DNA from: Flavobacteriales bacterium
GTDB lineage: Bacteria; Bacteroidota; Bacteroidia; Flavobacteriales_F; PHOS-HE28
Length of the DNA: 64,000 nt
Assembly: GCA_023957375.1 (NCBI GenBank)
Contig: JAMLHB010000001.1
Span: 1,154,245 to 1,218,244, forward strand
Direction: 5' to 3'
Position 1 is the stretch's first letter, and each line of letters opens with the position of its first letter. Below the pieces are notes generated by a model. It was given only the letters and a program-made list of their open reading frames with translations, made no database searches and had not been told where the DNA came from. Shown here one piece after another: positions 18,558 to 60,176 of this stretch. Both the position numbers and the translations under genes were made by a program.

Positions 18558-18625
18558 GGCCGCCATGGAAAGGGCGGGGGCATTGGCGTAAATTTGCACG
18601 CGCCCCCAACGGGCGGCAGGAAAAC

Positions 18626-19837: not shown

Positions 19838-19876
19838 GGCGAAACCCGCGGGCAGGCCCCGTCAACCCCTGGTTCG

Positions 19877-24334: not shown

Positions 24335-24407
24335 GCCACAGGCTTCCGCGCATATCAGCGATCTTCGTGCCTGATCGCGGCCAAATTAACCTTGCCCGTC
24401 CCCTCCT

Positions 24408-25421: not shown

Positions 25422-25442
25422 CACCGGAACAGTGGACTAACT

Positions 25443-26402
25443 TTGCGCAGCATGACCAATGCACGCTCCCCACTTCTCCTGTCCGGCCTGCTATGCCTGT
25501 CGATGTCGGTCATGGCGCAGGATGCCCGGTTACTGGTGACCGAAGGGGACAGCCTGCTAGCGGCCGCCAGCCCGGCCAAGGCCATGGCCAAATTCAACGC
25601 GGCGGTGCAATTGTCGCCCTCCGCGGATACCTATGCCGCCCGCAGCAGCGGCTGGTACTACATGGGCAAGTACGACAAGTTCCTGGAAGACGTGCGCAAT
25701 GCCTTGGACCGGGACAGCCTGAACGTGCGCGCCAACCACCTGCGTGCACTCCATGCACTGCGCACCAACGACAACCCGGCCGCCATCCACTTTGCCACCC
25801 AAGCCATCGAGGGTAGCGCCAACAAGGAGCAGCACCTGCGCGCCATGATCGTGCGCGGTGAGGCGGAAGCCGCGCTGGGCATGACGGACAAGGCCATTGC
25901 CGACCTCTCGGCCGGGCTGGAAGAATGCCGGCCCGAGGACACCGAGGCAATGAAGATGCTGGCCAGGCTGTTGGATGCGGCCAATGACCCGGCGGGAAGC
26001 CTGGCGATGCTGGAAAAGCTCTGTGAGATGGAACCGGGCGACATCGGCAACTGGAGCAACAGAGGATTTGAACTGATCCGCCTCGAACGCTTTCAGGAAG
26101 CCGTGGACGTGCTGGACCGCGCCCTGAAGCTGGACAAGGACGAACCCGTGGTGCTGAGCAACAAGGCCTACGCCGTGCTCAAGTTGGGACGACCGGACGA
26201 AGCCTTTACCTTGGTGAGCCACAGCCTGCGCTCGGACAAGGCCAATCCGTACGCCTTGCGTACCCGGGCCCTGATCTATTTACGCAAGGGTGAACGCGGG
26301 AAGGCGTGCGACGACCTTACCCTCGCCAAGGCCATGGGCGGCGCACCCGAAGTGGATGCCTTGGTGAAGGAGCATTGCGCCGGCCTGCCCACCAAACCGT
26401 AA
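25443..26402 (+). CDS. secreted tetratricopeptide (TPR) repeat protein
   Basis: Signal peptide (LLLSGLLCLSMSVMAQ) followed by repeated TPR-like helix pairs. Confidence 0.65.
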   Translation: MRSMTNARSPLLLSGLLCLSMSVMAQDARLLVTEGDSLLAAASPAKAMAKFNAAVQLSPSADTYAARSSGWYYMGKYDKFLEDVRNALDRDSLNVRANHLRALHALRTNDNPAAIHFATQAIEGSANKEQHLRAMIVRGEAEAALGMTDKAIADLSAGLEECRPEDTEAMKMLARLLDAANDPAGSLAMLEKLCEMEPGDIGNWSNRGFELIRLERFQEAVDVLDRALKLDKDEPVVLSNKAYAVLKLGRPDEAFTLVSHSLRSDKANPYALRTRALIYLRKGERGKACDDLTLAKAMGGAPEVDALVKEHCAGLPTKP

Positions 26403-26474
26403 CTGCCACAACCACTGCGTGCACAAGCCCCTGCCAGCAAATTCGTAGTATTGGCACCCGATCAAAAAAATAAC

Positions 26475-27266
26475 ATGAACCTGCTTTGCCCCACCGACCT
26501 GAGCTTGGCGGCTGACATTGCCCTGAGCTATGCCGGACACATTGCTAAACATGCTTCCGGTGAGATCACCCTGTTCCATGCACTGGCCAAGAAAGAGGCG
26601 GCACCCGACGATACCGTCTTGGGCAAGGCCCATGAGGCGAACCTGGGGCAGTTGGCCACTGCAGGCGTGAAGGTGCACCAAGTGCTGCGGGCAGGTCCCT
26701 TCATGAAGGAGATCGCCGCCGAATCCGCCAAGGGCCACAGCTTGGTGGTGATGGGCACCCATGGTGTGCGCAGCCTGCGGCAGGAGATCCTGGGCTCCGA
26801 CATGCTCCGGTTGGTACGCTCCGTGGCCGCTCCTTCGTTGGTGGTGCAAGCCTATTCGCCCCGCCAGGTGCGGATGAAGAAGATCCTGATGCCCGTGGCC
26901 GCACATGACGACATTTCGCCCCTGCTGACCACGGTTTGCACCTTGGCCAGATCTTGCGGCTCCGAAGTGGAGGTCTACCAGCAGCTGGTGGAGGGGCAAT
27001 CCACCAGCAACCAGCTCCTGCTAAACAAGCAGCAGATGCTGCAGCGCCTGAAGAAGGAAGGCATTCCCTACAAGGAGGTGAATGAGCCGGTGGAGAAGTT
27101 CTACGAGGGCTTCGTGTTGCGCACCATCCGCTACGCGCGCAACAACAACGTGGATTGCATCGCCATCATGGCACAAGCCAGCGGCGAGCACAAGAAGATC
27201 GCTGACAAGGAAAAGCAGGAACTGCTCACCAACGAGCTGGGCGTGCCTGTGCTGTGCGCGGTGTAG
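26475..27266 (+). CDS. universal stress protein (tandem UspA domains)
   Basis: Two Usp modules, each ending in the G-x2-G-x9-G-S/T ATP-binding pattern (…VVMGTHGVRSLRQEILGS…, …IAIMAQASGEHKK…). Start taken at MNLLCPTD. Confidence 0.75.
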   Translation: MNLLCPTDLSLAADIALSYAGHIAKHASGEITLFHALAKKEAAPDDTVLGKAHEANLGQLATAGVKVHQVLRAGPFMKEIAAESAKGHSLVVMGTHGVRSLRQEILGSDMLRLVRSVAAPSLVVQAYSPRQVRMKKILMPVAAHDDISPLLTTVCTLARSCGSEVEVYQQLVEGQSTSNQLLLNKQQMLQRLKKEGIPYKEVNEPVEKFYEGFVLRTIRYARNNNVDCIAIMAQASGEHKKIADKEKQELLTNELGVPVLCAV

Positions 27267-27276
27267 GGCTGCGGCG

Positions 27277-28420
27277 CTACCCCCCGCTGAACTCCCCGGC
27301 CAGCATCTCCGCCTGCCGCAGCACCAGCTCCGTGGCCAGCTTCTGCATATCGGGAGGATAGCCGAAGTGCCGCAGTGTCCGCTTCACGATCACCTTCAGC
27401 TTCGCCTTCACGCTCTCCTTGATCGTCCAGTCGATACTGGCGTTCTGGCGCACGCGCTCGGTGAGGACCACGGCCAGTTCGCGGAGCTTCTCCTGTTGCA
27501 TCAGCTCCTTGGCGCTGTCATTGTTCGCCACGGCGGTGTAGAAGGCGTACTCGTATTCGCTGAGACCCATATCGGCGGCCTGCTTGTCGCCGGCGGTGAT
27601 CTCCTTGCTCACCTTGATCAGCTCCTCGATCACTTCGGCGGCGGTAAGGATCTTGTTGTGGTAGCGCTTGATGCTGTCCTCCAGCATGTCCATCAGTGAT
27701 CGGCTCTGCACAATGTTGGTGCGGGCGCGGGCCTTGATCTCGTCGTTCAGCAGCTTCTTTAGCACCTCGATGGCCACGTTCTTGTGCGCCATGCCTTTCA
27801 GCTCCAGAAGGAACTCATCGCTGAGCACGGAGATGTCCGGCTTCTTGATGCCTGCCGCGTCGTAGACGTCAATGACCTTCTCGCTCACGAGCGCTTGATC
27901 GATGACCTGCCGGATGGTGGTCTCCAATTCCTCATCGGTGCGACCGCTGCCGGTGCTGTCGAACTTCACGAGGCGGGCTTTCACGGCTTGGAAGAAGCCG
28001 ACCTCGTCCTTCACATCCATCGCCTGGTCGTGCGGGATGGCGATGGCGAAGGACTTGGACAGTGCAGTGACCTCGTTGATGTAACGGCGCTTGCCGTCCT
28101 CCAGACCCAGGATGTGCTCTTCGGCGCCGAGGATCATCGAGAGCTTCGTCGCCGTGTCCGCTCGGAAGTATTCCTCGTAGGGGAAGCCGCTGTACATGTT
28201 CGCCACCACCTCCAACTTCTCCAGCATCAGTGCCACGGCTTGTTCTTGCGCGATCGTTGGGTCGCCCTTACCGCCCGCATCGGAGTAGAACGAGAGCGCC
28301 TTCTTCAGGTCGGTTGCGATACCGAGGTAGTCCACCACCAGGCCGCCGGGCTTGTCCTGGAACACGCGGTTCACACGGGCGATGGCCTGCAGCAGGGCAG
28401 GGAAGAGCAGTGCGCCAAAG
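27277..28420 (-). pseudogene. truncated duplicate of the type I restriction enzyme R-subunit (hsdR) C-terminal ~380 codons
   Basis: The translation is collinear with the last 381 aa of the intact hsdR at 44212–47439. Nucleotide identity looks essentially complete over the 3'-terminal ~450 bp, then drops to roughly 85–90%. The N-terminus carries 37 unrelated residues (MKGICS…MKKLLPLAFGALLFPALLQ) before the join at AIARVNRVF. Confidence 0.85.
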
Positions 28421-28501
28421 GCGAGGGGTAAGAGCTTTTTCATGGGTTTGGGGTTTGTGTTGGTCATCGAGTTTGGTTTGGATGAAAAAATTGCGGTTTG
28501 C

Positions 28502-30157
28502 TCAATTCCTGGAGTAGAGCAGATACCCTTCATTCCGATGGACGAGGTGAGGGAACCAACGTCCGCGTTCGGGGTACTTCTCCGCCTCGCTTCGGCGAAT
28601 GAGCAAGTAGGTCACATCGTATGCTTGCAGCAGGCTGTCCATTTCAGGTGCAGGGGCCTCCAAGCCGGCGAACATTCCTGCTCTGGCCTGCTCGCGAGGC
28701 GCGGGGAGCACGTACGGATTCGCCATGGATGCGTTGGTGGCCACGGTCTTGCGGGCGGAGGCCATGAGGACCCGCATGGAGAGTTCGTCATCACAGAGCA
28801 CCACGGCTTCCCAAGGAAGTTGGTCCCGCATGAAATAGCACATGTCCGTTGCACCGGTGTCGGCCATTCGCAACAGGCACCGTTGCCGGGTGAGGACCAG
28901 GTCGGGCCGGTTGGCATAGGCAGGATATGCAAAGGCGGTTTGAACAAGGATCAGGGCCCCGAGGGTGAAGGTGGTCCTGGTCGTGGTCACTTGCGCATCT
29001 TCCGTGCGCTGTGGATACTGCCATGCACGCTTCACGGAAACCACCACGATATGAGCGAAGCCGATCGCCAATGCCGCCTTCAGGTAGAAGTAGAAGTGGA
29101 AGGTCGGTACCGCTGTGGGCAGCTTGATGCCATAATGCACGCCCAGTGTGACGGCCATGTACCCGAAAAAGCCGAAGAACAGGCACAGGAGGACCCATGA
29201 TCGCATCACCACCCGTGAAGCCTGCCCCTTGCCCCGGAACAGCCCCACCACCCCGATCACCGCTATCAGATTGAACAGTGAAGCGTTGTGGAAGAGGAAC
29301 AATTCCCAATTGCGCAGGGAAAGGGGCGTATAGGTATAGGCCGTCGGAATGCGGTTCACCTGGTCCAAACCATAGTGCCCGACCACATACCAGGTAAGCG
29401 GTAACGTGATGATGATGAACGCGGCAGCCGAAGCGAGCACGCATTTGATATGTGCACGGACCCCTGCACGATCCCCTGTGCGCCATGCCGTGACCATCGC
29501 GAAGATCAGGTGGAACGCCACCGTGCCCACCAAGATCATGGCAGGTGCGGCATGTGCGAGGAACAGGACACCCGCACCGGCGCCCATCCCCATCCATACC
29601 GGCCAGGCCGAGTAACGGAAGGAATGATGCAGCGCGATCACCAGAAGGTAGAACAAGCCCTGTGAGAACATCATCGGCAGGAGCCAGGGTGAGTAGGTGG
29701 CGATCGCCCAGCCCGGCTCCTGGCCAGGCAGCAGGAAGAGCAGCGCCCACAACGCCACGACGGCGACCAAGGGCTTGAACAACCGCCACACCATGAGAAA
29801 GAAGGCGATGGGGCCCAGCAGATTGAGGAAGGCCCCGGCCCGGGCCTGAAATACCTGAATGGAAACACCGGTGGCCTTCACGGCCAATGCCTCCATGGAG
29901 AATACGAGCGGAGTGAACCACATGACCTCATCGCGATACAAGGGATCCTCTCCGTAGTGTCCGTCCAGGATGCTCTGCGCGAACGAGGCGTCCCGGTCAA
30001 AGTCCACATAGGGTGGCCAGGTGAGGTCGCTGGTGGCCCGATGGCCGCCGGCGAACGCCAGGGCGATCAGGAATACGGCCAGAGCGGTGCAGATCAGGGA
30101 TCGCCGGTCCCGTCCGGAGTTCCTCGCTTGGGCCGGGTGAAGGTTGGACCGCTTCAT
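28502..30157 (-). CDS. polytopic membrane protein (GT-C/ArnT-like fold suspected)
   Basis: 551-aa ORF with more than 10 predicted TM helices and good coding bias. No catalytic motif confidently recognised. Confidence 0.5.
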   Translation of the reverse strand: MKRSNLHPAQARNSGRDRRSLICTALAVFLIALAFAGGHRATSDLTWPPYVDFDRDASFAQSILDGHYGEDPLYRDEVMWFTPLVFSMEALAVKATGVSIQVFQARAGAFLNLLGPIAFFLMVWRLFKPLVAVVALWALLFLLPGQEPGWAIATYSPWLLPMMFSQGLFYLLVIALHHSFRYSAWPVWMGMGAGAGVLFLAHAAPAMILVGTVAFHLIFAMVTAWRTGDRAGVRAHIKCVLASAAAFIIITLPLTWYVVGHYGLDQVNRIPTAYTYTPLSLRNWELFLFHNASLFNLIAVIGVVGLFRGKGQASRVVMRSWVLLCLFFGFFGYMAVTLGVHYGIKLPTAVPTFHFYFYLKAALAIGFAHIVVVSVKRAWQYPQRTEDAQVTTTRTTFTLGALILVQTAFAYPAYANRPDLVLTRQRCLLRMADTGATDMCYFMRDQLPWEAVVLCDDELSMRVLMASARKTVATNASMANPYVLPAPREQARAGMFAGLEAPAPEMDSLLQAYDVTYLLIRRSEAEKYPERGRWFPHLVHRNEGYLLYSRN

Positions 30158-30591
30158 GGTTCCATGGTTTCAAGGGTGAATTCCTCCAGGTCATCTGTTC
30201 CGGGCTGGTTCCTCCAGAACAGCTTGGGGCCGGTCCATCCGAGGTATCCCCGGATGCGACGGTCCAGCTCCGGCACATCGGAGCGGACCCAGCCTTCGGC
30301 ACGGTCCCATGTCCAGGTTCCCTCCAGGTCGAAGGCACCACCGGGCCCGCTGGTGCGTAGCCGGCCATCCGGGTGCAGTTCCACGGTGGCCGGTGCTTCC
30401 GTGTCCTGGAACAGGAGGGGCAGCTCCATTCGGTACGACCCCGCTACTTGTTCCCGGTCCAGCCGCGCGTGGGAGTGGTGGATCGCCAGCACGGCGAGCA
30501 GCACAAGGAGCACAAGCCCGCCAAGCTGGATGGCGATGATCTGCATTCGGGAGGATGTTGGCATGTTCATTTGGGTGGTCCGGTTCGTCAA
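30154..30591 (-). CDS. small membrane-anchored hypothetical protein
   Basis: A single N-terminal TM (IIAIQLGGLVLLVLLAVLAI) followed by a soluble domain. ATGA overlap with the downstream membrane-protein gene. Confidence 0.4.
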   Translation of the reverse strand: MTNRTTQMNMPTSSRMQIIAIQLGGLVLLVLLAVLAIHHSHARLDREQVAGSYRMELPLLFQDTEAPATVELHPDGRLRTSGPGGAFDLEGTWTWDRAEGWVRSDVPELDRRIRGYLGWTGPKLFWRNQPGTDDLEEFTLETMEP

Positions 30592-30658
30592 AATGATCGG
30601 TCGGTGTTACGCTTCGGGCGTGCATGGCAACCCGTGATCGGGATCCAGGCGGCTTGCC

Positions 30659-31945
30659 TCACATGTTCCCATGGTCGTGCCCCGCAGGCATGGGGCCACC
30701 CTGCGGCGACATCATGCTGGGCGCACCGCTCAATTGCGCGGCGGCATCCACCATGAACGTGCCATGGACCACGATCTCCTCACCGGCCTTCAGGCCGGAG
30801 GTGATCACCACATCGTCACCCATTACGGTGCCCAGCACCACCTCGCGCAAGCGGAACTGCCCTTCGCCCACACGGACGTACACCACCGAGCGCGGGCCGG
30901 TCCAGAGCACGGCGGTGCGCGGGACCGCCAAGGCCCCGGCATCGCCATGCCGGGGCTTCGCCTGTACGGTTCCGATGGCGAACATGCCCGGTTTCAATGC
31001 GCCTTGCGGATCGGCCAGCTCCATCCGGGCACGGGCCACGCGCGTTGCGGGGTCCACCATGGGGTCGATGAAGTCGATGCGGCCCTTGAAGGTCTTGCCG
31101 GGCAGGGAACGCACGGTGAACCGGACGGTATCGCCCTTCCGAATGCGGCCAAGGTCGCTCTCATAAAGGTCGAACAGGGCCCAAAGCCGGCTCAGGTCGG
31201 CCACTTCGTACAGCACATCGCCGCGCTTCACGTAGTCCCCGAGGTCCGTTTTCTTTTCCACCACCACGCCGCTTACGTCCGCCAGGATCGCCACCACGCC
31301 GTTCGCTGTTCCCGCCCTGATGATCGCATCGATCTGCGCATCGCTCAGCTTCCAGTTGCGCAGCTTTCCGCGCGCCGCGGCGTACAGGTAAGGCTGCGCT
31401 TCGCGCACGCGGTGGGCTTCCAGCAATTCCTCCTGCGCGGTCACCAGCTCGGGAGAGAACACCCGCGCCAGGACCTGTCCTTTCTGCACGGTCTCGCCGG
31501 TGAAGTTCACCAGCAATTCCTCCACCCGCCCCGCCACGTGCGAGGCCTGTGCATACACGCGCCGTTCATCCGGCACCACCTTTCCGGTCAGGCGCAGGCT
31601 GCCCGCACCTCCGCCCGTGCCCACCACCATGGTCTGCACGCTGGCGAGCTTCATGGCACTGGCCGTCATGTGAACGGACATCGGGTCCATATCCTCCTCC
31701 ATGGAGGCAAGCGGGATGAGGTCCATGCCGCAGATAGGGCAGGAGCCGGGCTCGTTCATGCGGATCTGCGGATGCATGGAGCAGGTCCAGATCTGGCCCG
31801 TTTCTCCGTGGTTCGCATGGGCCGCTGCGGATGATCCGGAAGAACCACCGCCGAAGAAGACCCGGCCGAGCAAGAGCCCTGCGATAAGGGCGATGCCGAC
31901 AAGCAACGCGGTGCGGTAACGGGAGAAGAAAGACTTGGTAGTCAT
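30659..31945 (-). CDS. cusB: Cu(I)/Ag(I) efflux RND periplasmic adaptor (CusB/CzcB family) with N-terminal heavy-metal-binding domain
   Basis: [28 protein letters not shown], then a membrane-fusion-protein barrel/lipoyl pattern, and a Met/His-rich C-terminus (…PQGGPMPAGHDHGNM). Confidence 0.85.
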   Translation of the reverse strand: MTTKSFFSRYRTALLVGIALIAGLLLGRVFFGGGSSGSSAAAHANHGETGQIWTCSMHPQIRMNEPGSCPICGMDLIPLASMEEDMDPMSVHMTASAMKLASVQTMVVGTGGGAGSLRLTGKVVPDERRVYAQASHVAGRVEELLVNFTGETVQKGQVLARVFSPELVTAQEELLEAHRVREAQPYLYAAARGKLRNWKLSDAQIDAIIRAGTANGVVAILADVSGVVVEKKTDLGDYVKRGDVLYEVADLSRLWALFDLYESDLGRIRKGDTVRFTVRSLPGKTFKGRIDFIDPMVDPATRVARARMELADPQGALKPGMFAIGTVQAKPRHGDAGALAVPRTAVLWTGPRSVVYVRVGEGQFRLREVVLGTVMGDDVVITSGLKAGEEIVVHGTFMVDAAAQLSGAPSMMSPQGGPMPAGHDHGNM

Positions 31946-32099
31946 GGTCGTGGAAGTTTGAATGGTCGTTGGAACTGTCTCCTTTTATCGGTGGGCGTGT
32001 ACTTGCGTTGCAATAGCTGCGGATGATGGCCCGGTACGCCCCTTGCATACCAGACCGATCGCATCCCGTCAGTGGAAAGTGTATCTGCCGACCGGCCCA

Positions 32100-32357
32100 T
32101 TACACCTCCTTCAAGTTCATTTTGCATACGGGGCAATTTCCTGCTTCCGTATAGGTTTTGTCGCCTTCGCACTTCATGGGGCATTGGTAAGTCGCCACTT
32201 GCTCATCGTGCGCATGTGCTGCACCATCGCTGTGGACTTCTTCCTGTTGGGCAGCATCCACTGCGGTGCCCGCTTCGTTGCCCGAAGTTCCGCATGCACT
32301 GAAAGCGATCAGCGCAAAGGCCATCAGGCCCATCTTGAACATGTTCCTCGTCTTCAT
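32100..32357 (-). CDS. small lipoprotein with heavy-metal-binding domain (HMBD)
   Basis: Lipobox (…FSAC), His-rich linker (AAHAHDE), then YQCPMKCEG…AGNCPVCKM. Confidence 0.65.
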   Translation of the reverse strand: MKTRNMFKMGLMAFALIAFSACGTSGNEAGTAVDAAQQEEVHSDGAAHAHDEQVATYQCPMKCEGDKTYTEAGNCPVCKMNLKEV

Positions 32358-32405
32358 CGTTGTTTGGTTTTTGGTTGTTGGTTGTTGTTACTTGGTTCTT
32401 TCGTG

Positions 32406-33634
32406 TCAAGGCCTCACGATCTGTTTGGCCGTGAGGTAGTCCAGTTGGGCAATGGCGGTGTGGTGTTCGCGCATGGCCGAGAGCCGCATAAGCCGGAAGC
32501 GCAATACTTGTTCCTGCATGCGCAGCACTTCCTCCAGGTCGTCGCCGCTGTTGCTGTACGCGTCCAGCAGCAGGTTCAGCGCTTGCTGGGCGATGCCGAT
32601 CTGCCGGTCCATCAGCTGCACGTTGAGCGCGGCCTTGTGTGCCTCGAAATAGGCCGTCTCGTAGGCGCTGCCCAGTTCGTTCGCGGTCTGTTGCCGCATC
32701 GCTTGCACGGCCTGCTCCAAGCTCTGTGCTTCCTCCACCGCGCTGCGGTATTTGTTGCGATAGATCGGCAGGCTCAGGCTCACCATGGGCATTACCTCGC
32801 CACTGCTCATGCCCGGCATCATCAGGGGCGAGCGCTTGTCCATCGCCATGTATTCCACGCCGAGCCCGAAGCGCGGCAGGCCCATCTTCCTCGCGGCCTC
32901 GGCCCGGGCCAATTCCGCGGATGCCTTTCGGTCCAGTTCGCCCAGTCGCGGGTTGTGCTCCAGGCTGTCCGTGGTATAGTTGGCCAGGTCCACGAGCTGC
33001 AAGCTGTCGCTCACGTCCACGATCACCGGCCCGGCATAGCCTACGGTGCTAGCGAAGGTGGCCTGCAAGGGCTTGCGCCGTTCTTCGAGGATCGCGATGT
33101 CGTTCTCTTCGGTGTTGATCAGGAGGTCGATGCGCAAGACGTCCACCATGCTCCCGGTGCCGCCCTTGAAGCGGGCCATGGCGAAGGCCCTGTAGCTGCG
33201 CAGGATGGCCAGGTCGTCCTTGGCAATGGCGATGTCGCGCCCCAGTTCATGCAAGGGGTAGTAGGCCACGCGGACCTTGTAGAAGAGCTCGTTCCGCGCA
33301 CTGAGGAAGGCCTCGTAACGTGCTTCGGCCTGGCGGTCGGCCACTTCCGCTTGCGCACCCAGCGTACCGAACCAGGGGAACATCTGCATCAGCGAGAAGC
33401 GCGCCCGTTCAGCGTTCATCAGCTTTTCCGGCGGCGTGAGGGAGAAACCCGCAGTGAGCGTTGGATCGGGCAAGCCCCGGACCTGGGCGGAACGCTTGAG
33501 CGCCGCTTGGAATTCCGCATAGCGCGCCTGTACAGCGGGGTTCAGTTCCGCGGCAGCGCGCAGGTGCGCGTCCAGGTCCTGCGCGGATGCTTGCGACAGC
33601 GCCAGGGAGCAGAGGAAAAGCAGGAGGATCGTTC

Positions 33635-33638
<4 letters not shown>
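32406..33638 (-). CDS. cusC: TolC-family outer-membrane efflux protein (CusC/CzcC)
   Basis: Signal peptide followed by the two-repeat OEP helical/beta pattern. Overlaps cusA by 4 nt. Confidence 0.8.
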
Positions 33639-37435
<3,797 letters not shown>

Positions 37436-37468
37436 GGGTCAAGGGGGAATGGCATCGGGGATCAACGA

Positions 37469-38035
37469 TCAATGGTGGTGGTCCTCGTCGTGGTCGTCAT
37501 CATCATCATCATGGTGGTGGTCCCCGTCGTGGTGATCTCCATCGTGGTCCTCGTCCACGTCCCCGCCGTGATGGTGGTGATGGTGACCTTCCACTACCTC
37601 CGGAGCCAGTATCGCAGGGTCCACACCTGCACCGCCGCGATACACGATCCAAGCGCCGAGGTAGGAGCCCACGATCAGCAGCATCGCCGCCGACACTGAG
37701 AGGAAGAGGGACTGCGGGGTGGCCAAGCTTTTTCTGCGCTTCCAACGCAGCAGGCACATCAGCCCGAACACGCCGATGGCGATCGACTGGATCCAGATGT
37801 GCCAGGTCATCCGCTCATGCGCCGCTTCCGTGTGGGCGGGCACCGTGTAGTAGGCCATGATGCCGGTGATGATGGTCAAGAGGCCCATGATCACGCCCGC
37901 CACCATCAGCCCGAACGCCACGCGCGCCAGGTCCTCCCGTTGCTTTCGCCAACCGTAGAGGTCGAGTATCACGCCGCTCAACAGCAAGGCGATCGGAAAG
38001 TGTACGAATGCCGGATGAAGTTCCCAGGTGTTCAT
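37469..38035 (-). CDS. DUF2231-like membrane protein with His/Asp-rich C-terminal tail
   Basis: 4-TM core (start MNTWELHPAFVHFPIALL) and a 45-aa tail HHHHHHGGDVDEDHDGDHHDGDHHHDDDDDDHDEDHHH. Positioned as the first gene of the cus transcription unit. Confidence 0.6.
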   Translation of the reverse strand: MNTWELHPAFVHFPIALLLSGVILDLYGWRKQREDLARVAFGLMVAGVIMGLLTIITGIMAYYTVPAHTEAAHERMTWHIWIQSIAIGVFGLMCLLRWKRRKSLATPQSLFLSVSAAMLLIVGSYLGAWIVYRGGAGVDPAILAPEVVEGHHHHHHGGDVDEDHDGDHHDGDHHHDDDDDDHDEDHHH

Positions 38036-38060
38036 GGTCGTTCGGGTTATTGGTTGGTGT

Positions 38061-38288
38061 TCAGTCGACGGGTTGGAGGAACATGCCGCACTTCGAGCAT
38101 TTGTCCCCTTCCTTGCCGGTGACCTCCGGGTGCATCGGGCAGGCGTATGCCAATTCCTCGGATGCTTGCGTGGCGGTGCTGTCGCCCGTTGCATGGGCAG
38201 GGACTTGTTCGTTGGTGGAGGTGGGGCTGCCACAAGCGGTCCACGTGGTGGCGGCCAGGGCGAGAATGATCAGGCTGTACTTGGTCAT
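38061..38288 (-). CDS. lipoprotein with heavy-metal-binding domain (HMBD)
   Basis: MTKYSLIILALAATTWTACGS lipobox, then YACPMHPEV…CSKCGM. Confidence 0.6.
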   Translation of the reverse strand: MTKYSLIILALAATTWTACGSPTSTNEQVPAHATGDSTATQASEELAYACPMHPEVTGKEGDKCSKCGMFLQPVD

Positions 38289-38447
38289 GGTCGTGTTGTA
38301 TTGGTCCGTTGAGGGGCACCATATGTGCCTTCTGCGGTTCCCGCAGGGAAGTCGCTCAATCGTCGTAAGTGAATGGAAAGGGCACGGGAAAGCGCGATGG
38401 GCCATGCCATCATGCGCAACGGACCATGGGGCCCGCAGATTCGATCC

Positions 38448-38843
38448 TTAGACGCGGAAAACCTGAAGGTCCGCCAAACGGGCGCTCATGGAGCGAGGAG
38501 GGCGGTACTGTGGCCTTGCTGAAAAGGTGTGCCCGGAACGAGGTGCGACGGTCACTGTTCCCCAAGCGACCACTATGGCCTGCACTGGAGCAGGTGCTAC
38601 GACCTTATCGAAGATGAATGTTGGAATCTCAGCTTGCACGCTGAAGAACTCACAGCAGTTAAAGCTCAGATGTGGATCCGTACTCTCAGGGGTCGGACAG
38701 CAATCACGGGCATCGCCAATCTGAACCGAACTGCGCCCGCTGGAAGTGCAGGTCATCCGTGAAAGCTTTGGAGCCACCGTTGCCAGCAATAGCAACAGCA
38801 CCAAGGGCCACAGGGCCGATCGCCGCTTTCTGATGGATGACAT
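38448..38843 (-). CDS. possible small secreted cysteine-rich protein
   Basis: In a low-GC (~50%) patch: MSSIRKRRSALWPLVLLLLLATVAPK signal peptide, then 8 Cys including CC pairs. Embedded in a longer GC-shadow ORF, so weak. Confidence 0.3.
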   Translation of the reverse strand: MSSIRKRRSALWPLVLLLLLATVAPKLSRMTCTSSGRSSVQIGDARDCCPTPESTDPHLSFNCCEFFSVQAEIPTFIFDKVVAPAPVQAIVVAWGTVTVAPRSGHTFSARPQYRPPRSMSARLADLQVFRV

Positions 38844-39048
38844 CTTCCACATACGGTAGCCAAGGTATTGCGAAATGGACAGAAGGAGTTCCTTTTTGCT
38901 GCGAGGCTTGGAATTGCAGCGGCACCGGAAACGTGTTCCAAATACCCGCATCCCCGGATGTGGGCAGAAGGCGAAGGACGAAAGCTTCACCTTCGGGGCC
39001 GCATTCGAACCAGCTGGACAATTAGAACAATTTAACGTACTTCGCCGC

Positions 39049-40134
39049 ATGAGAATGAACGGACGCAACCCGGTGCTTCTGCTCTGCGCAGGCTTGTTCA
39101 CGCTGTACGCTTGCCAACGTGATGCGGAACAGGCGCAACCTGCCGGTGAGGAATGGAACGGCCCCACGCCCTATCAGTTGTCCTTTCCCGAATGGGCCAC
39201 GGACGCCTCACATGTGTTGATGATGCCCGCGGACAACCCCTTGACGGAGGAAGGGGTCGCGCTGGGCCGGAAGTTGTTTTATGAGAAAGCACTATCCAAC
39301 GATTACTCGATGTCCTGCGCCACCTGCCACCAGCAGGATCATGCATTCACGGATCCGAGGGTCGTTTCCCTGGGCACGGACGGCTCCCCCGGACGGCGGA
39401 ATTCCATGGCCATCGTGAACCCCGCATGGGACCAATTCTTTTTCTGGGACGGCCGCGCGCCCAGCCTGGAGATGCAGGCCTTCGGTCCCGTGGCCAATCC
39501 GGTGGAAATGCACAACACCTGGCCCGAAGTGGTGGATCGCTTGGCCGCGGATCCCGTGTATCCCTTGCTGTTCGAACACGCCTTCGGATCGCCCGGCGTG
39601 GACAGCATGCGCGTGGTGAAAGCGATCGCACAGTTCGAACGGACGTTCATCTCCTTCAACTCCCGCTTCGACCGATTCGAGTACGGCGGGGACAGCACCG
39701 CGTTGACCGCGCAGGAACAGGCCGGAAGGAACTTGTTCTTCGATGGCGCCCATTGCAACATCTGCCATGTGGCCCCCTTCTTCTCGGACAACCGCATGTT
39801 CAACATCGGTTCAACGGTGGGCTTCGGGGACCTGGGCCAGGAGGAAGCGACGGGGCAGCACTCCGATTTCGGCAAGTTCAAGAACACCACCCTCCGCAAC
39901 ATAGAGGTCACGGCGCCTTACATGCACGATGGCCGTTTTGCGACCTTGGAAGAGGTGGTGGATTTCTACGCGGACTCCATCGTCTCCTCGCCCGGCCTGG
40001 ACAACCACATGTTCCCCTTCCTCAATGGAGGGACCCCGCTCGACGCCGCGGACCGCGCGGCCTTGGTGGCGTTCATGAAGACGCTTACGGACACGGAGTT
40101 CCTGAACAACCCGGCGTACTCGGATCCCAATTGA
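39049..40134 (+). CDS. ccp: di-haem cytochrome c peroxidase (CCP/MauG family)
   Basis: Two CxxCH haem sites (CATCH, CNICH) and the conserved …FFFWDGRAPSLE… and …PYMHDGRFATLEEVVDFY… blocks. Lipoprotein-type signal (LLCAGLFTLYAC). Confidence 0.8.
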   Translation: MRMNGRNPVLLLCAGLFTLYACQRDAEQAQPAGEEWNGPTPYQLSFPEWATDASHVLMMPADNPLTEEGVALGRKLFYEKALSNDYSMSCATCHQQDHAFTDPRVVSLGTDGSPGRRNSMAIVNPAWDQFFFWDGRAPSLEMQAFGPVANPVEMHNTWPEVVDRLAADPVYPLLFEHAFGSPGVDSMRVVKAIAQFERTFISFNSRFDRFEYGGDSTALTAQEQAGRNLFFDGAHCNICHVAPFFSDNRMFNIGSTVGFGDLGQEEATGQHSDFGKFKNTTLRNIEVTAPYMHDGRFATLEEVVDFYADSIVSSPGLDNHMFPFLNGGTPLDAADRAALVAFMKTLTDTEFLNNPAYSDPN

Positions 40135-40183
40135 GGGGTGAGCGATAACGCTCACTTCAACTTCTTCCCCCGCGATCATGAAC

Positions 40184-40385
40184 GCGCTCGGCTATTTGCC
40201 GAGCGCATGATCGCTTAGGGCCTCCGGCCTGTCCCATCCTCGCAATGCACGCGCTCGGCTATTTGCCGATCGCGTGATCGCTTAGGGCCTCCGGCCTGTC
40301 CCATCCTCTTCGGATATGCACATGAGCAAGGCGGGCCGGAGGCCCTAGCAGCCTACTCACTCGGCAAAATAGCCGAGCGAGTGTG
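40184..40385. repeat. cluster of hairpin-forming repeats (two direct ~60-bp copies plus one inverted partial copy)
   Basis: CGCGCTCGGCTATTTGCCGAGCGCATGATCGCTTAGGGCCTCCGGCCTGTCCCATCCTC occurs at ~40184 and ~40248. An inverted partial copy (GGCCGGAGGCCCTAG…CTCGGCAAAATAGCCGAGCG) lies at ~40335–40384. Confidence 0.6.
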
Positions 40386-40402
40386 GGGAGTGCGGAGGGG
40401 AT

Positions 40403-43168
40403 TCAGTCGTCGAACCGCTTTCCCCGCAGGCGCAAGGAATTCGAGATCACGCTCACGCTACTGAAGCTCATGGCCGCAGCGGCGATGATGGGCGAGAGCA
40501 GCCAGCCGAACACCGGGTACAGCAGTCCGGCGGCGATGGGGATGCCCAAGGCGTTGTAGCCGAAGGCGAAGAAGAGGTTCTGCTTGATGTTGCGCATCAC
40601 GGCCTGCGAGAGGCGGCGTGCGCGCAGGATGCCGGTGAGGTCGCCCTTCACCAGGGTGATGCCCGCGCTTTCCATGGCCACATCGGTGCCGTGCCCCATG
40701 GCGATGCCCACGTCGGCGGCGGCCAGTGCGGGCGCATCGTTCACGCCGTCGCCGGCCATGGCCACGATGCGGCCTTCCTGCTGGAGACGTTGCACCACGG
40801 CGCTCTTCCGCTCGGGCAGCACGCCGGCCTCCACTTCCGTGATGCCGAGGCGCTTGGCAACTGCATCGGCGGTTCCCTGTGCATCGCCGGTCAGCATGAC
40901 GATGTGCAGCCCTTGCTTCCGCAGGCCGTCCAACGCTTTTGCGGTGGTGGGCTTGATCGCATCGGCGATGGCCAGCATGCCCGCGACCTTGTCATCGATG
41001 CCGACGAAGATCACCGTGGCGCCTTCACGCCTGCGGTCCGCCGCCAGTTTGGAATGCCGCTCCGTATCGATCGCATGCTCCTTCAGGAAATCCGCGCTGC
41101 CGAGGAGCACGCGCTTGCCTTCCACCGTGCCCATCACGCCTTTGCCTGTGGGCGAATCGAAATCTGTGACGGCCGGCACTTGTACCTCCTTCTCGCGCGC
41201 CACACTGACGATGGCCTTGGCATACGGATGCTCGGAAAGCCGCTCCACCGCTGCGGAGAAGCGCAATACTTCCTCTTCCGTAAACCCTTCTTCCGGAAAG
41301 ACATGCGTGAGGCTCGGCTTGCCTTCGGTGAGCGTGCCGGTCTTGTCCACCACCAGCGTATCCACCTTCTCCATGCGTTCCAGCGCTTCCGCATCGTGGA
41401 TCAGCACGCCCATGCCGGCGCCTTTCCCCACGCCCACCATGATGCTCATCGGCGTGGCCAGGCCCAATGCGCACGGGCATGCGATGATGAGCACGGACAC
41501 CGCGGCAACCAGCGCGTAAGTGAAGCGCGGCTCAGGTCCCACGAACATCCAGACGATGAAGATGAGCACGGCCACGCCGATCACGATCGGCACGAACCAG
41601 CCGGAAACCTTGTCGGCCATGCGCTGGATCGGTGCGCGGGAACGCTGGGCGGAGGCCACGAGATGCACGATGCGCGAGAGCACCGTATCGGCGCCCACTT
41701 TTCCCGCCTTCACCACCAAGGCGCCGGAGCTGTTCATGGTGCCACCGATCACGGCATCGCCCACGGTGCGGGTCACCGGCATGGATTCGCCGGTGATCAT
41801 GCTCTCGTCGATGGAGGAACGTCCTTCCAGCACTTCGCCGTCCACCGGCACTTTTTCCCCGGGCCGCACACGGAGACGATCGCCCACCGTGATGCTGTCC
41901 AGGGCCACTTCCTCGTCCGTGCCATCCGCATTGATGCGCATCGCGGTGGTGGGTGCCAGGTCCAGCAAGGCCTTGATGGCGCCGGACGTGCTTTCGCGTG
42001 CACGCAGCTCCAGCACTTGGCCCAGCAGCACCAGCACGGTGATCACGGCCGCGGCCTCGAAGTAGACGCCCACCACGCCCGGCGCGACATGGAATGCCTC
42101 CGGGAAGAGGCCCGGTGCGAACAGCGCGACCACGCTGTAGAGCCACGCTACGCCCACGCCCATGGCGATCAGCGTGAACATGTTGAGGTTGCGGTTGACC
42201 ACGGAAGCCCAACCGCGTTGCAGCAAGGGCCAACCCGCCCAGAGCACCACGGGCGTGGCCAGGATGAACTGGATCCACGCGGAGAGTTGCGGCGAAACGA
42301 TGTGATGCAACGCCGGGAAGATGTGCGATCCCATCTCCAGCACGAACACCGGGATGGAGAGCGCCACGCCGATCCAGAACCGACGCGTCATGTCGATCAG
42401 CTCCTCGTTGGGACCGGTGTCCGCGCTGTACACTTCCGGCTCCAGCGCCATGCCGCAGATGGGGCAGCTGCCCGGGCCCACCTGCCGGATCTCCGGATGC
42501 ATGGGGCAGGTGTAGATGGCCTCCTTGTTCACTGGCACTGCCGTGGCCGCATGCTGTTCAGGATGCAGGTAGCGCTCGGGATCGGCCTCGAATTTCGTTT
42601 TGCATCCGGCGGAACAGAAGTAATGGGAATGGCCGGCGTGTTCCGTGGAATACTTCGCCGTCTTCGGGTCCACGTCCATGCCGCAGACGAGGTCCTTCAC
42701 CTTGTTTCCTGTGGAAGAAGATGGTCCCGTGAGGTAGTGTTCCGGATCGGCCTCGAACTTCGTTTTGCAACCGGCGGAACAGAAGTAGTAGGTATGGCCC
42801 GCATGCGTAGTGGAATGCTTGGCGGTCTTCGGGTCCACGTCCATGCCGCAGACGGGGTCTCTCACCTTTTGCCCTGCGGAACCGGCGACTGGCAGGTACT
42901 GGGCGGGATCGACCTCGAACTTGGCCTTGCAACCCGCCGAACAGAAGTAATAGGTGTGCCCTGCGTGTTCGCTGGAATGCGTGGCGGTCTTCGGGTCCAC
43001 GTCCATGCCGCAGACCAAGTCCTTCACCTTGCCCTTGCCGATGGCGGGCATGGGGGGCAGCGCCGGTTCCATCCCTGTTCCGCAGCAACTGCCGCCGGAC
43101 TTCGCTTCGTGGGTGTGGCTTTCGCCGTGTTTCTTCTCCATGTCATCCTGGATCGCAGCACAAAGCAC
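40403..43168 (-). CDS. copA: copper-translocating P1B-type ATPase with three N-terminal YHS/TRASH modules and one HMBD
   Basis: Three [11 protein letters not shown]…HAGH(T/S)YYFCSAGCK modules plus YTCPMHPEI…CPICGM. Then CPC ([12 protein letters not shown]), [13 protein letters not shown], and the Cu-type TM motifs GYNALGIP and MSFSSVS. Confidence 0.9.
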
Positions 43169-43565
43169 GGTACTGCGGGGGTATTTGGGGTTACAGGATT
43201 ATGGGGAAGGGTTATATCGTGGGGGTTGGGGCGGGTTCTTGGGGTGCTGGGTTATGGATGCGGCTGCGTCAGTTTCGCAAGGCGGAGCTTTTTCAGGATG
43301 CTGCGTTCAAGCGTTCGGTGCTGATGCAACCCTGCATATATGGAACTGAAACACAAATTGCCGGTCATGTCCCGCCGAGTTCACGCCATCGAAATGGCAT
43401 GGGCCACAGGGATCCGGTACCAGTCTTGCCCCAGCGCAAGGGCCAGGTCCTTCGGCGATGGCAGGTAGGCCACCAGCACGTTGTTCTTTTCCGTATCGAG
43501 GATGATCTCGTGCATGGTGGGGGCTATGTGTTTCACAAAAAGGGGATAAGTATCATATCGGGCTA

Positions 43566-43627
43566 CCCCCCACTGAACTCCCCCCGCCAGCATCTCCGCC
43601 TGCCGCAGCACCAGGTCCGTGGCCAGC
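43566..43627. repeat. ~60-bp remnant of the hsdR 3' end (third copy)
   Basis: CCCCACTGAACTCCCCCCGCCAGCATCTCCGCCTGCCGCAGCACCAGGTCCGTGGCCAGC matches the 3' terminus of the 27277 copy, including its specific C-terminal codons. The chimeric ORF 43381–43611 reads through it. Confidence 0.65.
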
Positions 43628-43739
43628 TACGGTATCCGGCGGGCAGCCAGCGTATAGCAGGGTCCATCTATACACCCTGCGATGACTCGAAGGGAGGGTA
43701 GGTCTCTTGGATGAGACCCAACCGCGGATAAAGCATTCG

Positions 43740-44228
43740 CTACTTCCCGTATTTCTCTTTCAACTCGAGCTTCTTGATGCGCGAAGCGATCGCGCCTGGA
43801 TCGCGTCCGAAGATCACCGCGAGTTCCTTGTTCTTCTTGCCTTCGCAATACAGCTGCTCCAAGCGTGTATCATCCTCAGCCGTCCATCGCGCGTAGGCAT
43901 GCGGATGCTTCTCGCGGATCACTTCGACACTGTACGCCTTGTCGTCCCCCATGGTGAACGATTTCTTCTTGAACGCGTGCGCCATCAAGCGCCGTACAGC
44001 ATCCGCCATCGCCTCCAGCAGGTCCTCCGCGTGGTCCTTATCCACCATGATGTGGCTGTGCTCGAAGCGCTTGCCGGACTGCGTGCTCTCCGAAAGTTTC
44101 AAGTACGGCTCACCGCTCTTTGTTTCCTGCACATCCACGAAGTAGGTCTTGAGACCGGCGCGGAGGCGGGTGCTGTAGATCTCTTTGTCAGGCATCTTGT
44201 ACTGTATTGGTTCAATTCGCGAATTCAT
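43740..44228 (-). CDS. DUF3276 (PUR-alpha-like) family protein with extra C-terminal HTH-like region
   Basis: …KEIYSTRLRAGLKTYFVDVQETKSGEPYLKLSES… is the Bacteroidota-specific DUF3276 pattern. The C-terminal 50 aa (TAEDDTRLEQLY…IASRIKKLEL) resemble a sigma-region-4-like HTH. Overlaps the hsdR stop by 17 nt. Confidence 0.6.
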   Translation of the reverse strand: MNSRIEPIQYKMPDKEIYSTRLRAGLKTYFVDVQETKSGEPYLKLSESTQSGKRFEHSHIMVDKDHAEDLLEAMADAVRRLMAHAFKKKSFTMGDDKAYSVEVIREKHPHAYARWTAEDDTRLEQLYCEGKKNKELAVIFGRDPGAIASRIKKLELKEKYGK

Positions 44229-47200
44229 TCGCCAGCATCTCCGCCTGCCTTAACACCAGCTCCGTGGCCAGCTTCTGCATATCGGGAGGATAGCCGAAGT
44301 GCCGCAGTGTCCGCTTCACGATCACCTTCAGCTTCGCCTTCACGCTCTCCTTGATCGTCCAGTCGATACTGGCGTTCTGGCGCACGCGCTCGGTGAGGAC
44401 CACGGCCAGTTCGCGGAGCTTCTCCTGTTGCATCAGCTCCTTGGCGCTGTCATTGTTCGCCACGGCGGTGTAGAAGGCGTACTCGTATTCGCTGAGACCC
44501 ATATCGGCGGCCTGCTTGTCGCCGGCGGTGATCTCCTTGCTCACCTTGATCAGCTCCTCGATCACTTCGGCGGCGGTAAGGATCTTGTTGTGGTAGCGCT
44601 TGATGCTGTCCTCCAGCATGTCCATCAGTGATCGGCTCTGCACAATGTTGGTGCGGGCGCGGGCCTTGATCTCGTCGTTCAGCAACTTCTTGAGCACTTC
44701 AATGGCCACGTTCTTGTGCGCCATGCCCTTCAGCTCAAACAGGAATTCCTCGCTGAGCACGGAGATGTCCGGCTTCTTGATGCCCGCCGCATCGTACACG
44801 TCGATCACCTTGTCACTCACCAACGCCTGGTCGATCACCTGCCGGATGGTGGTCTCCAACTCCTCATCGGTACGACCGCCTCCGGTACCGTCGAACTTCA
44901 CGAGACGGGCCTTCACGGCTTGGAAGAAGCCGACCTCGTCCTTCACGTCCATCGCCTGGTCGTGCGGGATGGCGATGGCGAAGGCCTTGCTGAGCGCCGT
45001 GACCTCGTTTATGTACCGCCGCTTGCCGTCCTCCAGGCCGAGGATGTGTTCTTCAGCGGCAAGGATCAGCGACAACTTCTTCGCCGTATCCGCTTGGAAG
45101 TAGTCCTCGTAGGGGAAGCCGCTGTACAGGTTGGCGACCACTTCCAATTTCTCCAGCATCAGCGTAACAGCCTGCTCCTGTGCGATGGTGGGGTCACCCT
45201 TGCCACCGGCATCGGAATAGAAGCTGAGCGCCTTCTTCAGGTCGGCGGCGATGCCGAGGTAATCCACCACAAGGCCGCCGGGCTTGTCATGGAACACGCG
45301 GTTCACGCGGGCGATGGCCTGCATCAGGTTGTGCCCCTTCATCGGCTTGTCGATGTAGAGCGTATGCATACTGGGGGCATCGAAACCGGTGAGCCACATA
45401 TCGCGCACGATCACTAATTGCAGCGGATCGTTGGGGTCCTTCATGCGGTCGGCCAGGGCGCGGCGCTGCTCCTTGGTGCTGTGGTGCCGGGCCATGGCCG
45501 GGCCATCCGATGAAGCGGCCGTCATCACCACTTTGATCTTGCCCTTGCCCAGGTCGTCGTCGTGCCACTCCGGGCGCAGGGCCACGATCTCCCGGTACAG
45601 TTCCGCGGCGATCCTTCGGCTCATGGCCACGATCATGCCCTTGCCCTCAAAGACCTCCTGCCGCTGCTCGAAGTGCGCCACGATGTCGCGCGCCACGTTC
45701 TTGATCCGGTTCTCGCTGCCGATCAGCGCCTCCAATTGGGTCCACTTGGCCTTGGCCTTCTGTGTGTCGGTGAGTTCCTCCTTGCCCAACTCATCGTCCA
45801 GGTCTTTGATCAGCTGCTTGCCTTCCTCGCTCAGGTTCACCTTGGCCAAGCGGCTCTCGTAGTAGATGCGCACGGTGGCGCCGTCCTCCACGGCCTGCGC
45901 GATGTCGTACACATCCACGTAGTTCCCGAAGACCGCAGGGGTGTTCACATCGGTGCTCTCGATGGGCGTGCCGGTGAAACCCAGGTAGGTGGCCTTGGGC
46001 AGCGCATCGCGCAGGTACTTGGCGAAGCCGTAGACGATCTTGCTGCCGACCACTTCGCCCGCTTCGTCCTTCACATCCACGTTGCGGGCCTTGAAACCGT
46101 ATTGTGTGCGGTGCGCTTCGTCGGCGATCACCACGATGTTCTCGCGGGCGCTCAACTGATCATACACGTTTCCCTCCTCGGGCTGGAACTTCTGGATGGT
46201 CGTGAACACCACGCCGCCGCTGGCCACCTTCAGCAACTCCTTCAGGTGGTCGCGGCTTTCGGCCTGCACGGGTTCCTGCCGCAGCAGTTGCACGCTTGCC
46301 GCGAAGGTGTCGAAGAGCTGGTCGTCCAGGTCGTTGCGGTCGGTGATCACAACGATGGTCGGATTGTTCAGCGCCAGCACGATCTTGCCGGTGTAGAACA
46401 CCATGCTCAGGCTTTTGCCGCTGCCTTGGGTGTGCCATACCACACCGCCTTTGCGGTCACCGGTGGGTTGCTGGTTTACACCGGGTAGGCCATAGCTCTC
46501 CGGTGATTCCGCCACCATCGACACATCGCCCGTGGTGCTCGTTGACGGAGCCTTGTAGCCTGCCGCCCTGAGCGTGCTCGCCACCGCCCGGTTCACCGCG
46601 TAGTACTGGTGGTACGCGGCGATCTTCTTTACCGTGGTGATGGTGTTGATGCCCGTCTTCGGGTCTTCCTTCTTGCTGCGCTCGAACACGATGAAGTGGC
46701 GCACCAGATCGAGCAGCGTCTCCTTGTTGAGCATGCCCACGATCAGCGTTTCCAACTGACCGATCAACGGCGAGGCTTCCACCTTGCCATCGCTGGTCTT
46801 CCAGCTCATGTACCGGCTATAACCGCTGCTCACCGTGCCGGCCTTGGCCTCCAGGCCGTCGCTGATCACCGTCACACAGTTGTAGGTGAACAGGCCGGGG
46901 ATGGTCTCCTTGTAGGTCTCCACCTGCTTGTAGGCGCTGCGGATGCTCGCCTTCTCATCGGCGGCGTTCTTCAGCTCCATCAGCACCAGCGGCAGGCCGT
47001 TCACGAACAGCAGTACATCCGGCCGCTTGTTCTTGCCGTTCTCCACCACGGTGTATTGGTTCACCACTAATAAGTCGTTGTTGGCGGGGTCGGTGAAATC
47101 CACCAGCCACACCAGGTCGCCGCGGGTGTTGCCGTCCTGCTGGTAGTCCACCTTCACGCCTTCGGTGAGCATGCGGTGGAAGACCTCGTTGTTCACCAGC

Positions 47201-48719: not shown

Positions 48720-48799
48720 GATGCGATTAGGTTTGCACGTGCTTGACTGGACACCTCACAGGTTATTGACTTCATGCGCACTACCGAGACAGATGAATG

Positions 48800-60150: not shown

Positions 60151-60176
60151 AGGTAGGGTCCCAACTTCGCCCTACG

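Follow-up and report, generated by a model that had tools for sequence, protein, structure and literature searches.

The window analysed here is a 64-kb stretch of DNA (64,000 nucleotides) from a Flavobacteriales bacterium (GCA_023957375.1, contig JAMLHB010000001.1, positions 1,154,245 to 1,218,244), in which a cluster of copper-efflux genes lies between copies of the 3' end of the type I restriction gene hsdR. The hsdR 3' end is present three times, every copy is on the minus strand, and together the copies bracket all of the copper-efflux genes. Self-BLAST of the window aligned 27299-28396 with 44231-45328 (92.1% identity over 1098 nt, ungapped, E=0) and 27276-27363 with 43562-43648 (86.5% over 89 nt, E=2e-21), and by this search the repeats were judged to be far above chance. 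The long pair consists of the intact gene and a 5'-truncated copy (copy A). When the identity of this pair was profiled in 50-nt bins, copy A was 100% identical to intact hsdR over 431 nt (27322-27752 against 44254-44684); upstream of this block the identity ranged from ~76 to 98% per bin, and the homology stopped abruptly at 28396. The intact HsdR protein ends in ...ANEFAN* and the product of copy A in ...AGEFSGG*, while the short remnant has the ending GEFSGG* plus a 1-nt frameshift. An earlier reading made from the letters alone (the sequence-only reading) had described three hsdR 3' ends on the same strand around the copper genes, which is borne out by the alignments. The truncated copy that it placed at 27277-28420 exists but ends at 28396, not 28420, and the remnant that it gave as ~60 bp at 43566-43627 is present with an aligned extent of ~87 nt (43562-43648). 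It had further described the long pair as identical over the terminal ~450 bp and 85-90% identical beyond; the identical block is there and measures 431 nt, and the diverged part is ~87% identical overall.

Alleles were assigned by comparison with relatives. The resident ('C') allele is defined by contigs L001, L002, L003 and L006, and the incoming right-hand DNA by contigs L085-L090. The features that concern the hsdR copies and their junctions, including open reading frames (ORFs), are the following.

26475-27266, plus strand: USP gene of the native left flank, convergent with hsdR (Pfam Usp; the exact protein is found on 23 metagenome contigs)
27277-28396, minus strand: copy A, the 5'-truncated hsdR of 1.12 kb, an ORF with the T1RH-like_C domain only (Pfam)
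27277-27752, minus strand: native ('C' allele) hsdR 3' end in copy A, 0 mismatches to L001, L002, L003 and L006
27753-28396, minus strand: hsdR fragment of the putatively foreign 'F' allele, with ~87% identity to L001 as well as to the intact copy; its 5' truncation falls within helicase motif VI
28384-28396, minus strand: illegitimate junction at a TGCAGGCC microhomology, perfect over 8 nt, or over 13 nt if one mismatch is allowed
28397-28467, minus strand: initial 24-28 codons of a secreted-protein gene, coding for the signal peptide MTNTNPKPMKKLLPLAFGALLFPALLQA, in frame with the hsdR fragment to which they are fused (L084 comparison)
43562-43648, minus strand: ~87-nt hsdR remnant ('G'), frameshifted and joined to its own native downstream DNA (L010 match)
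43740-44228, minus strand: DUF3276 gene, overlapping the hsdR stop codon (Pfam PF11680)
44212-47439, minus strand: intact hsdR, 1075 aa, with HSDR_N, SWI2/SNF2, D3-like and T1RH-like_C domains (Pfam)
44212-44253, minus strand: last 14 codons of intact hsdR (...ANEFAN*), assigned as imported (L085, L086, L088 and L090 comparison)
44254-47439, minus strand: body of intact hsdR, native 'C' allele at least to 45627, 99.2-100% identical to the L001 remnant

The left flank of the window (16475-27752) is ~99.7% identical to L001, L002, L003 and L006. Copy A matches these contigs with 0 mismatches up to 27752 and then shows ~89 mismatches in 644 nt, placing the left-hand allele switch at, or just left of, 27753. 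The intact copy is L001-like from 44254 up to 45627, where the L001 remnant ends; the initial 1.1 kb of this stretch has 5 mismatches. On the right-hand side, contigs L085-L090 are 99.7% identical to the window left of 44260. Four of them (L085, L086, L088 and L090), which were found via a 99%-identical DUF3276 protein present on 24 contigs, have 3 mismatches across 43159-44259 and differ at 40 of 421 positions across 44260-44680. L001 departs from the window at 44250, 44251 and 44253, and the two agree from 44254. Since the L085-type match ends at 44259 and the L001 identity starts at 44254, the right-hand crossover would lie within the 6 nt of 44254-44259. The native/foreign boundaries at the two sides are ~435 nt apart in hsdR coordinates.

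These comparisons indicate that the foreign block is 27753-44253 (16.5 kb), with the native 431-nt block on either side of it, and that each of the two long copies is a hybrid, in reciprocal arrangement: copy A is of the C type and then F, and the intact copy F' and then C. The target gene is restored by the imported last 14 codons, and all of its domains are kept. The island had previously been taken as 28.4-43.6 kb, and the tails had been assigned the wrong way round: AGEFSGG*, which had been called foreign, is the common native tail, the USP-side tail being identical to L001, whereas ANEFAN*, which had been called resident, is the imported one and came in along with the DUF3276 gene. The proposal of a foreign allele plus gene conversion holds for the foreign allele, at 27753-28396, but not for the conversion, because on either side the identical block of 431 nt consists of native sequence. 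When the peptide of the F part was used as query against 5.8 billion proteins, only fragments were returned, with at most 86% identity where most of the query was covered, or 92% where three quarters were.

The left end of the copper cargo was resolved by contig L084 (GCA_036788775.1), which was found via its identical CusB. L084 is collinear with the window from 37597 to 28384, with 3 mismatches across 30.1-37.5 kb, and beyond the junction it continues into an intact gene for a 186-aa secreted protein (MTNTNPKPMKKLLPLAFGALLFPALLQAQVPITV...; L084 9128-9688). The window tracks L084 to ...CCCTGCTGCAGGCC and then reads ATCGCCCGTGTGAACCGC, which is hsdR helicase motif VI; all hsdR alleles have CCTGATGCAGGCC and ATCGCC on the two sides of this position. 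The switch to hsdR falls within CCTG(C/A)TGCAGGCC, the L084 alignment ending at 28384 and the hsdR alignment starting at 28396, and it truncates two genes, hsdR and the secreted-protein gene. Comparison of both parental sequences thus indicates that the left cargo end is an illegitimate microhomology join, and a k-mer assembler could not have made an 8-nt microhomology junction. Because the junction joins foreign to foreign DNA, the illegitimate join appears to predate the integration. Exact-pattern scans of JGI metagenome contigs gave no match to the 28.39-kb junction or to the junction between the remnant and DUF3276, and the fused ORF of copy A is absent from the protein index. Two independent Logan contigs of the hsdR-DUF3276 type, L095 (1-10) and L096 (1-5), begin at most 6 nt from the position of the copy A breakpoint. 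These starts were considered as the same junction elsewhere and set aside, because their first bases are of the hsdR type and a graph break in the conserved helicase motif VI is likelier.

Relatives provide both the empty site and the linkage of hsdR to the copper genes. In another species (L014), an hsdR of at least 725 aa directly adjoins USP, which suggests that the tail-to-tail arrangement of USP and hsdR is the ancestral, empty state. L001, L002 and L006 carry USP and a C-allele hsdR 3' remnant, 5'-truncated at another point, without copper genes; in L001, L002, L003 and the genome contig L006, the hsdR remnant is followed by a 184-aa ORF, MerR, DUF4397 and carotenoid genes. The search for an empty site in relatives, which the sequence-only reading had proposed, was therefore successful (L014 and L001/L006). 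No same-species genome with full-length hsdR beside USP was found among the contigs compared. In L010, an intact hsdR is directly followed downstream by the same ATPase, di-haem enzyme and DUF2231 genes, and the window shows 7 mismatches to this contig across 38.5-42.5 kb. Positions 43397-43648 of the window are 90.9% identical to L010 10644-10896, which comprises the end of the intact L010 hsdR and downstream sequence. Because of this match, the ~87-nt remnant is best explained as what is left of an L010-like hsdR that formerly adjoined the copper genes; it would be a separate, older scar and not the sister of copy A that it had been taken for.

The overlap of hsdR with DUF3276 and the ...ANEFAN* tail, as in the intact copy of the window, were also seen in L013, L095 and L096, and AGEFSGG* is the usual tail in other relatives. 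L001 and L085/L086 have a common 5' truncation junction, between the 184-aa ORF and hsdR, followed by different downstream DNA, and the hsdR alleles in the clade are visibly mosaic. The shared and independent truncations, shuffled flanks and mosaic alleles point to repeated use of the hsdR 3' part as a recombination substrate in this clade.

Some further observations on hsdR were made in the relatives. L011 (9935-13822) has an independent hsdR 5' truncation 33 nt from the window breakpoint, with an open 380-aa ORF, and the next gene after its truncated hsdR encodes a different P-type ATPase (44% identity). ORFs for the HsdR C terminus on its own were seen more than once, namely in the window, L001 and L011. 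The HsdR C-terminal domain shows ~77-83% protein identity in Proteobacteria, Chlorobi, Cyanobacteria, Spirochaetes and others (L015-L083), and the type I system appears from this distribution to be very widely transferred. In L085 (1593-1788), as well as in L086, L088 and L090, the hsdR remnant is interrupted by an insertion of 196 nt whose terminal inverted repeats (GGGTGGTTCGGATCACCTCG) are perfect over 20 nt. This insertion, which is absent from the window, is probably a miniature inverted-repeat transposable element.

The gene content between the copies was assigned by Pfam and NCBIfam profile searches of the window ORFs, and the genes are listed here; RND stands for resistance-nodulation-division and HMBD for heavy-metal-binding domain.

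28502-30157, minus strand: 551-aa polytopic membrane protein without a family, with an L084 homologue 10-20% diverged in nucleotides
30659-37435, minus strand: RND metal-efflux operon as a whole, within the 30.1-37.5 kb that has only 3 differences from L084
30659-31945, minus strand: CusB-like membrane fusion protein with HMBD and HlyD_D23 (CusB barrel-sandwich) domains
about 32103-32336, minus strand: small HMBD protein, member of the RND operon
32406-33638, minus strand: outer-membrane factor (OEP), member of the RND operon
33635-37435, minus strand: CusA/CzcA-family RND pump (TIGR00914, 755 bits against a cutoff of 701)
37469-38233, minus strand: DUF2231 membrane protein (profile searches)
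38875-40134, plus strand: MbnH/MauG-like di-haem enzyme (profile searches)
40403-43168, minus strand: copper ATPase of the P1B type, containing YHS/HMBD repeats (TIGR01511, 593 bits, cutoff 397)

Each copper gene is single-copy in the window by self-BLAST. By curated family thresholds, the cargo includes Cu/Ag efflux determinants, namely a P1B-1 ATPase and a Cus-type RND system; the CusB equivalog score of the membrane fusion protein is under its cutoff (112 versus 390). The Cu/Ag specificity is predicted from family membership and metal-binding domains. The 551-aa membrane protein had no match in Pfam, NCBIfam or PADLOC. Exact-protein look-ups with this protein, the di-haem enzyme, DUF3276, a 426-aa protein, an NTase-binding (HEPN-like) protein and ParE likewise gave no match. 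The YHS domains of the ATPase are encoded by three ~165-nt repeats (42567-43043), and a 64-nt tandem pair lies downstream of the di-haem enzyme gene (40178-40308).

In Enterobacteria, copper and silver islands consist of pco/sil clusters, which are often borne on Tn7-like elements. The present cargo resembles them in having a CopA-type P1B ATPase, a Cus-type RND tripartite pump and metal-binding accessory proteins. It differs in gene set and order, with DUF2231, the MbnH-like di-haem enzyme and the 551-aa membrane protein present, and no pco/sil regulators or transposition genes were seen in the window. Megablast of 28397-43740 against PLSDB gave matches to the ATPase only, at ~70-75%, and a plasmid origin was rejected on this result.

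We favour, with moderate confidence, the reading that a circularised or ends-in chromosomal segment was inserted by Campbell-type homologous recombination within hsdR, without an integrase. The evidence seen in the alignments comprises the repeats, both mosaics, the microhomology junction with both of its parents, the empty site and the hsdR-copper linkage in a relative. The donor would have been a related Flavobacteriales lineage with a copper-efflux cluster immediately downstream of hsdR. The far end of the cluster, i.e. the signal-peptide codons of the secreted-protein gene, would have been joined to an internal point of the donor's own hsdR via the 8-nt TGCAGGCC, a join such as an excised circle, or a single unit of a tandem duplication, would contain. 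The closed unit would then comprise hsdR (the 3' 1.1 kb, with the F part and the tail), DUF3276, the old hsdR scar, the copper genes and the first codons of the secreted-protein gene. RecA-type homologous recombination with the resident hsdR, lying tail-to-tail with USP, would have followed in the 3' third of the gene. It may have been a single crossover in a block where the donor and resident alleles were already identical, which is the natural place for a RecA crossover, or an ends-in event in which a gap or break of ~431 nt in the incoming DNA was repaired from the resident copy; crossover in an identical block and ends-in gap repair are both textbook outcomes. The result would be an intact hybrid hsdR on the operon side, with the resident body and the imported last 14 codons, and a 5'-truncated hybrid beside USP, with 644 imported nt and 476 resident nt, the 431-nt resident block standing on both sides. 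The ~87-nt remnant would date from an older event, in which an hsdR-DUF3276 segment replaced the L010-like hsdR in the donor lineage. No site-specific recombinase would be involved, and the insertion would be reversible through the direct repeats by the same pathway. The circular or ends-in intermediate, the order of the events, the route of DNA transfer and a donor in another strain or species, and not in a second locus, are what we infer from these junctions. Acquisition by homologous recombination via hsdR had been one of the options in the sequence-only reading, and the reciprocal mosaic, the empty site and the hsdR-copper linkage of L010 speak for it.

Campbell-type or ends-in integration is known for non-replicating circular or gapped DNA, from the Campbell model and the single crossover of suicide plasmids, and gap repair is said to have been worked out by Orr-Weaver, Szostak and Rothstein. 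The window shares with such events the direct repeats of the homologous segment that flank the insert, one full-length and one 5'-truncated, the reciprocal donor/recipient hybrids, the resident sequence on both sides of the gap or crossover block, and the reversibility by RecA. It differs in that this would be a natural event in uncultured Flavobacteriales, in which a piece of chromosome was closed by an 8-nt microhomology with no plasmid, and in that the intermediate is one that we infer. Homology-facilitated illegitimate recombination was reportedly described by de Vries and Wackernagel in 2002 in natural transformation. There, too, one homologous anchor and one microhomology junction bring in non-homologous cargo. 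In the window, however, the illegitimate junction is foreign-to-foreign, between the F-allele hsdR and the secreted-protein gene, and both insertion ends are homologous. This mechanism was rejected because its illegitimate join is between donor and recipient, whereas here L084-like DNA is joined to the F allele, which is 87% identical to the resident one. The term is used in PMC6382021 and PMC8504540.

Several points weigh against a Campbell-type insertion of foreign DNA. No genome carries the F allele among the 80 genome loci covered by the search, the closest allele to the F part being that of L004 at 91%, and three junctions are unique to the window (C to F at 27753, F to the secreted-protein gene at 28384-28396, and F' to C at 44254-44259). 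The duplicated native block needs an extra assumption, either an identical donor allele or gap repair or heteroduplex correction. The donor may be non-foreign, with an intragenomic origin from a second copper locus in the same species. In that case an ancestor would have carried a USP-linked hsdR remnant together with a locus in the order secreted-protein gene, copper cluster, DUF3276 and full hsdR; a microhomology deletion would have fused the remnant with the secreted-protein gene, and conversion plus import of an allele would have given the mosaic. The join at 28384-28396 is equally expected from such a deletion, contigs of the same lineage carry separate remnant loci (L001 and L085), the GC content is uniform, and kilobases of the copper region match L084 and L010 at 100%. 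Because of this last identity, the donor and the recipient would be close relatives. We nevertheless regard an intragenomic rearrangement as unlikely, since at least three events would be needed (conversion of the full copy by the remnant, an F patch into the remnant, and the deletion) and the pattern is reciprocal: copy A is F where copy B, the intact one, is C (segment 2100-2752), which non-reciprocal conversion would not give. The exact 431-nt repeat could also let an assembler mis-thread a strain mixture. Two co-occurring strains would then have been threaded through the identical block or through shorter shared k-mers, and the linkage of USP to copy A, or of copy B to the restriction-modification operon, would not exist in one cell. 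The relatives are all metagenome contigs, those with the DUF3276/remnant region are short (at most 3.4 kb), L003 breaks inside hsdR as is typical of strain mixtures, and sharp switches from 100% to ~90% identity also occur in chimeric assemblies. We give such an artefact only a small chance: the 64 kb of the window form one contiguous sequence that takes in both repeats, the fusion of the truncated hsdR to the copper region exists regardless, as a k-mer graph cannot make its 8-nt microhomology, and the alternative threading would yield an empty site and a 16.9-kb replicon-less circle, i.e. the excised form of the same element.

Duplication-amplification join points arise by a RecA-independent microhomology join, which is followed by RecA-dependent expansion or loss. 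The window has features of this process, because a truncated gene fused by microhomology to the distal end of a unit is the classic join point of a duplication and the long direct repeats could drive loss or amplification. That metal selection led the hsdR-3'/copper unit to be tandemly duplicated or amplified in situ, with copy A as the join point, is nonetheless very improbable, as the window holds a single unit with only one copy of every copper gene, and the context to the left of copy A is USP, not a second copper unit, with which the copy A tail is contiguous exactly as in L001. The geometry had also been likened to attL/attR of a site-specific element. An integrative island with its attachment site in the hsdR 3' end would account for the 3'-end location, the regenerated gene and the direct repeats. 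Known integrase-driven islands bring a replacement copy to a gene 3' end or body, as does SGI1 at trmE and as do the dusA islands (PMC8409611), and the Vibrio cholerae recA island carries a divergent recA (PMC4405046). The window resembles them in that the end of a conserved gene is occupied, the gene is kept intact by imported sequence and a displaced partial copy lies at the far end. Pfam searches of the large ORFs tested at 26-55 kb, which cover almost all of the coding space, found no integrase, excisionase, transposase or relaxase domain, in agreement with the earlier statement that the island contains no integrase, recombinase or transposase. The boundaries, at 27753 and 44254-44259, are at different hsdR positions, staggered by ~435 nt, and share no att core; the repeats are mosaic and measure 431-1098 nt, not tens of nt; and at the left cargo end two genes are cut short by a microhomology fusion. 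The attachment-site model is already contradicted by the present data, and we consider it scarcely tenable. No terminal inverted repeats were found at the boundaries, and an insertion sequence, a composite transposon and a Tn7-like island were rejected in the absence of these repeats and of transposase domains. The only tRNA gene is at 13.5 kb, with none near the block, and the GC content shows no anomaly (58-65% inside the block versus about 60% outside).

Other features were noted in and around the restriction-modification operon. In hsdM (52219-54279, minus strand), an in-frame DUF559 (Vsr-like endonuclease) domain (PF04480, E=4e-36) at ~52687-53001 splits the N6_Mtase domain. The hsdM of L007 and L009 is without it, and a homologous insert is found in frame inside hsdR (around aa 300-307) in L004 (8423-8680), L007 (8354-8680) and L012 (1370-1627). 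The DUF559 insert resembles a mobile domain cassette, shuttling from one restriction-modification subunit to another. Between hsdR and hsdS, 47439-51049 (minus strand) encodes the 426-aa protein, which has no family, and a 749-aa HerA/DUF87-like ATPase, with a GC content of 51-55% versus about 61% elsewhere; these two genes, lying within the type I operon, are candidates for a defence pair. A nucleotidyltransferase (NTase)/NTase-substrate-binding (MNT/HEPN-like) pair lies at 54063-55215 (minus strand) between hsdM and parC, and the NTase ORF overlaps the annotated hsdM 5' end. Four ~100-nt tandem units are present between two ORFs at 60171-60611, and a Lys/Ala-rich (AKKA) coding repeat at 9738-9896.

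The proposed Campbell-type insertion into hsdR would add to a known mechanism a new natural case that is documented unusually well, with both parental sequences in hand for most junctions. It would mean that a metal-resistance cluster can move between related environmental bacteria without integrase, transposase or plasmid, given the homology of a conserved restriction gene and one microhomology join. Screens built on integrases, tRNA sites or GC skew would miss such insertions. The direct repeats of 0.43-1.1 kb predict RecA-driven loss or amplification of the copper cluster. The hsdR 3' third has ~90% nucleotide identity among these Flavobacteriales and ~80% protein identity across phyla. We put forward as a speculative and rather doubtful extension that this conserved third is a portable homology handle, whose downstream cargo loops out, by RecA between hsdR repeats or by microhomology, and re-enters any genome with a related hsdR, so that it would represent a recombinase-free class of mobile cargo. 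The HsdR C-terminal ORFs that are left behind, which are intact in the window, L001 and L011, might dampen restriction by competing for the methylase core. More generally, the locus points to widely transferred restriction-modification genes as potential recombination anchors, by which the genes beside them can be shuffled.

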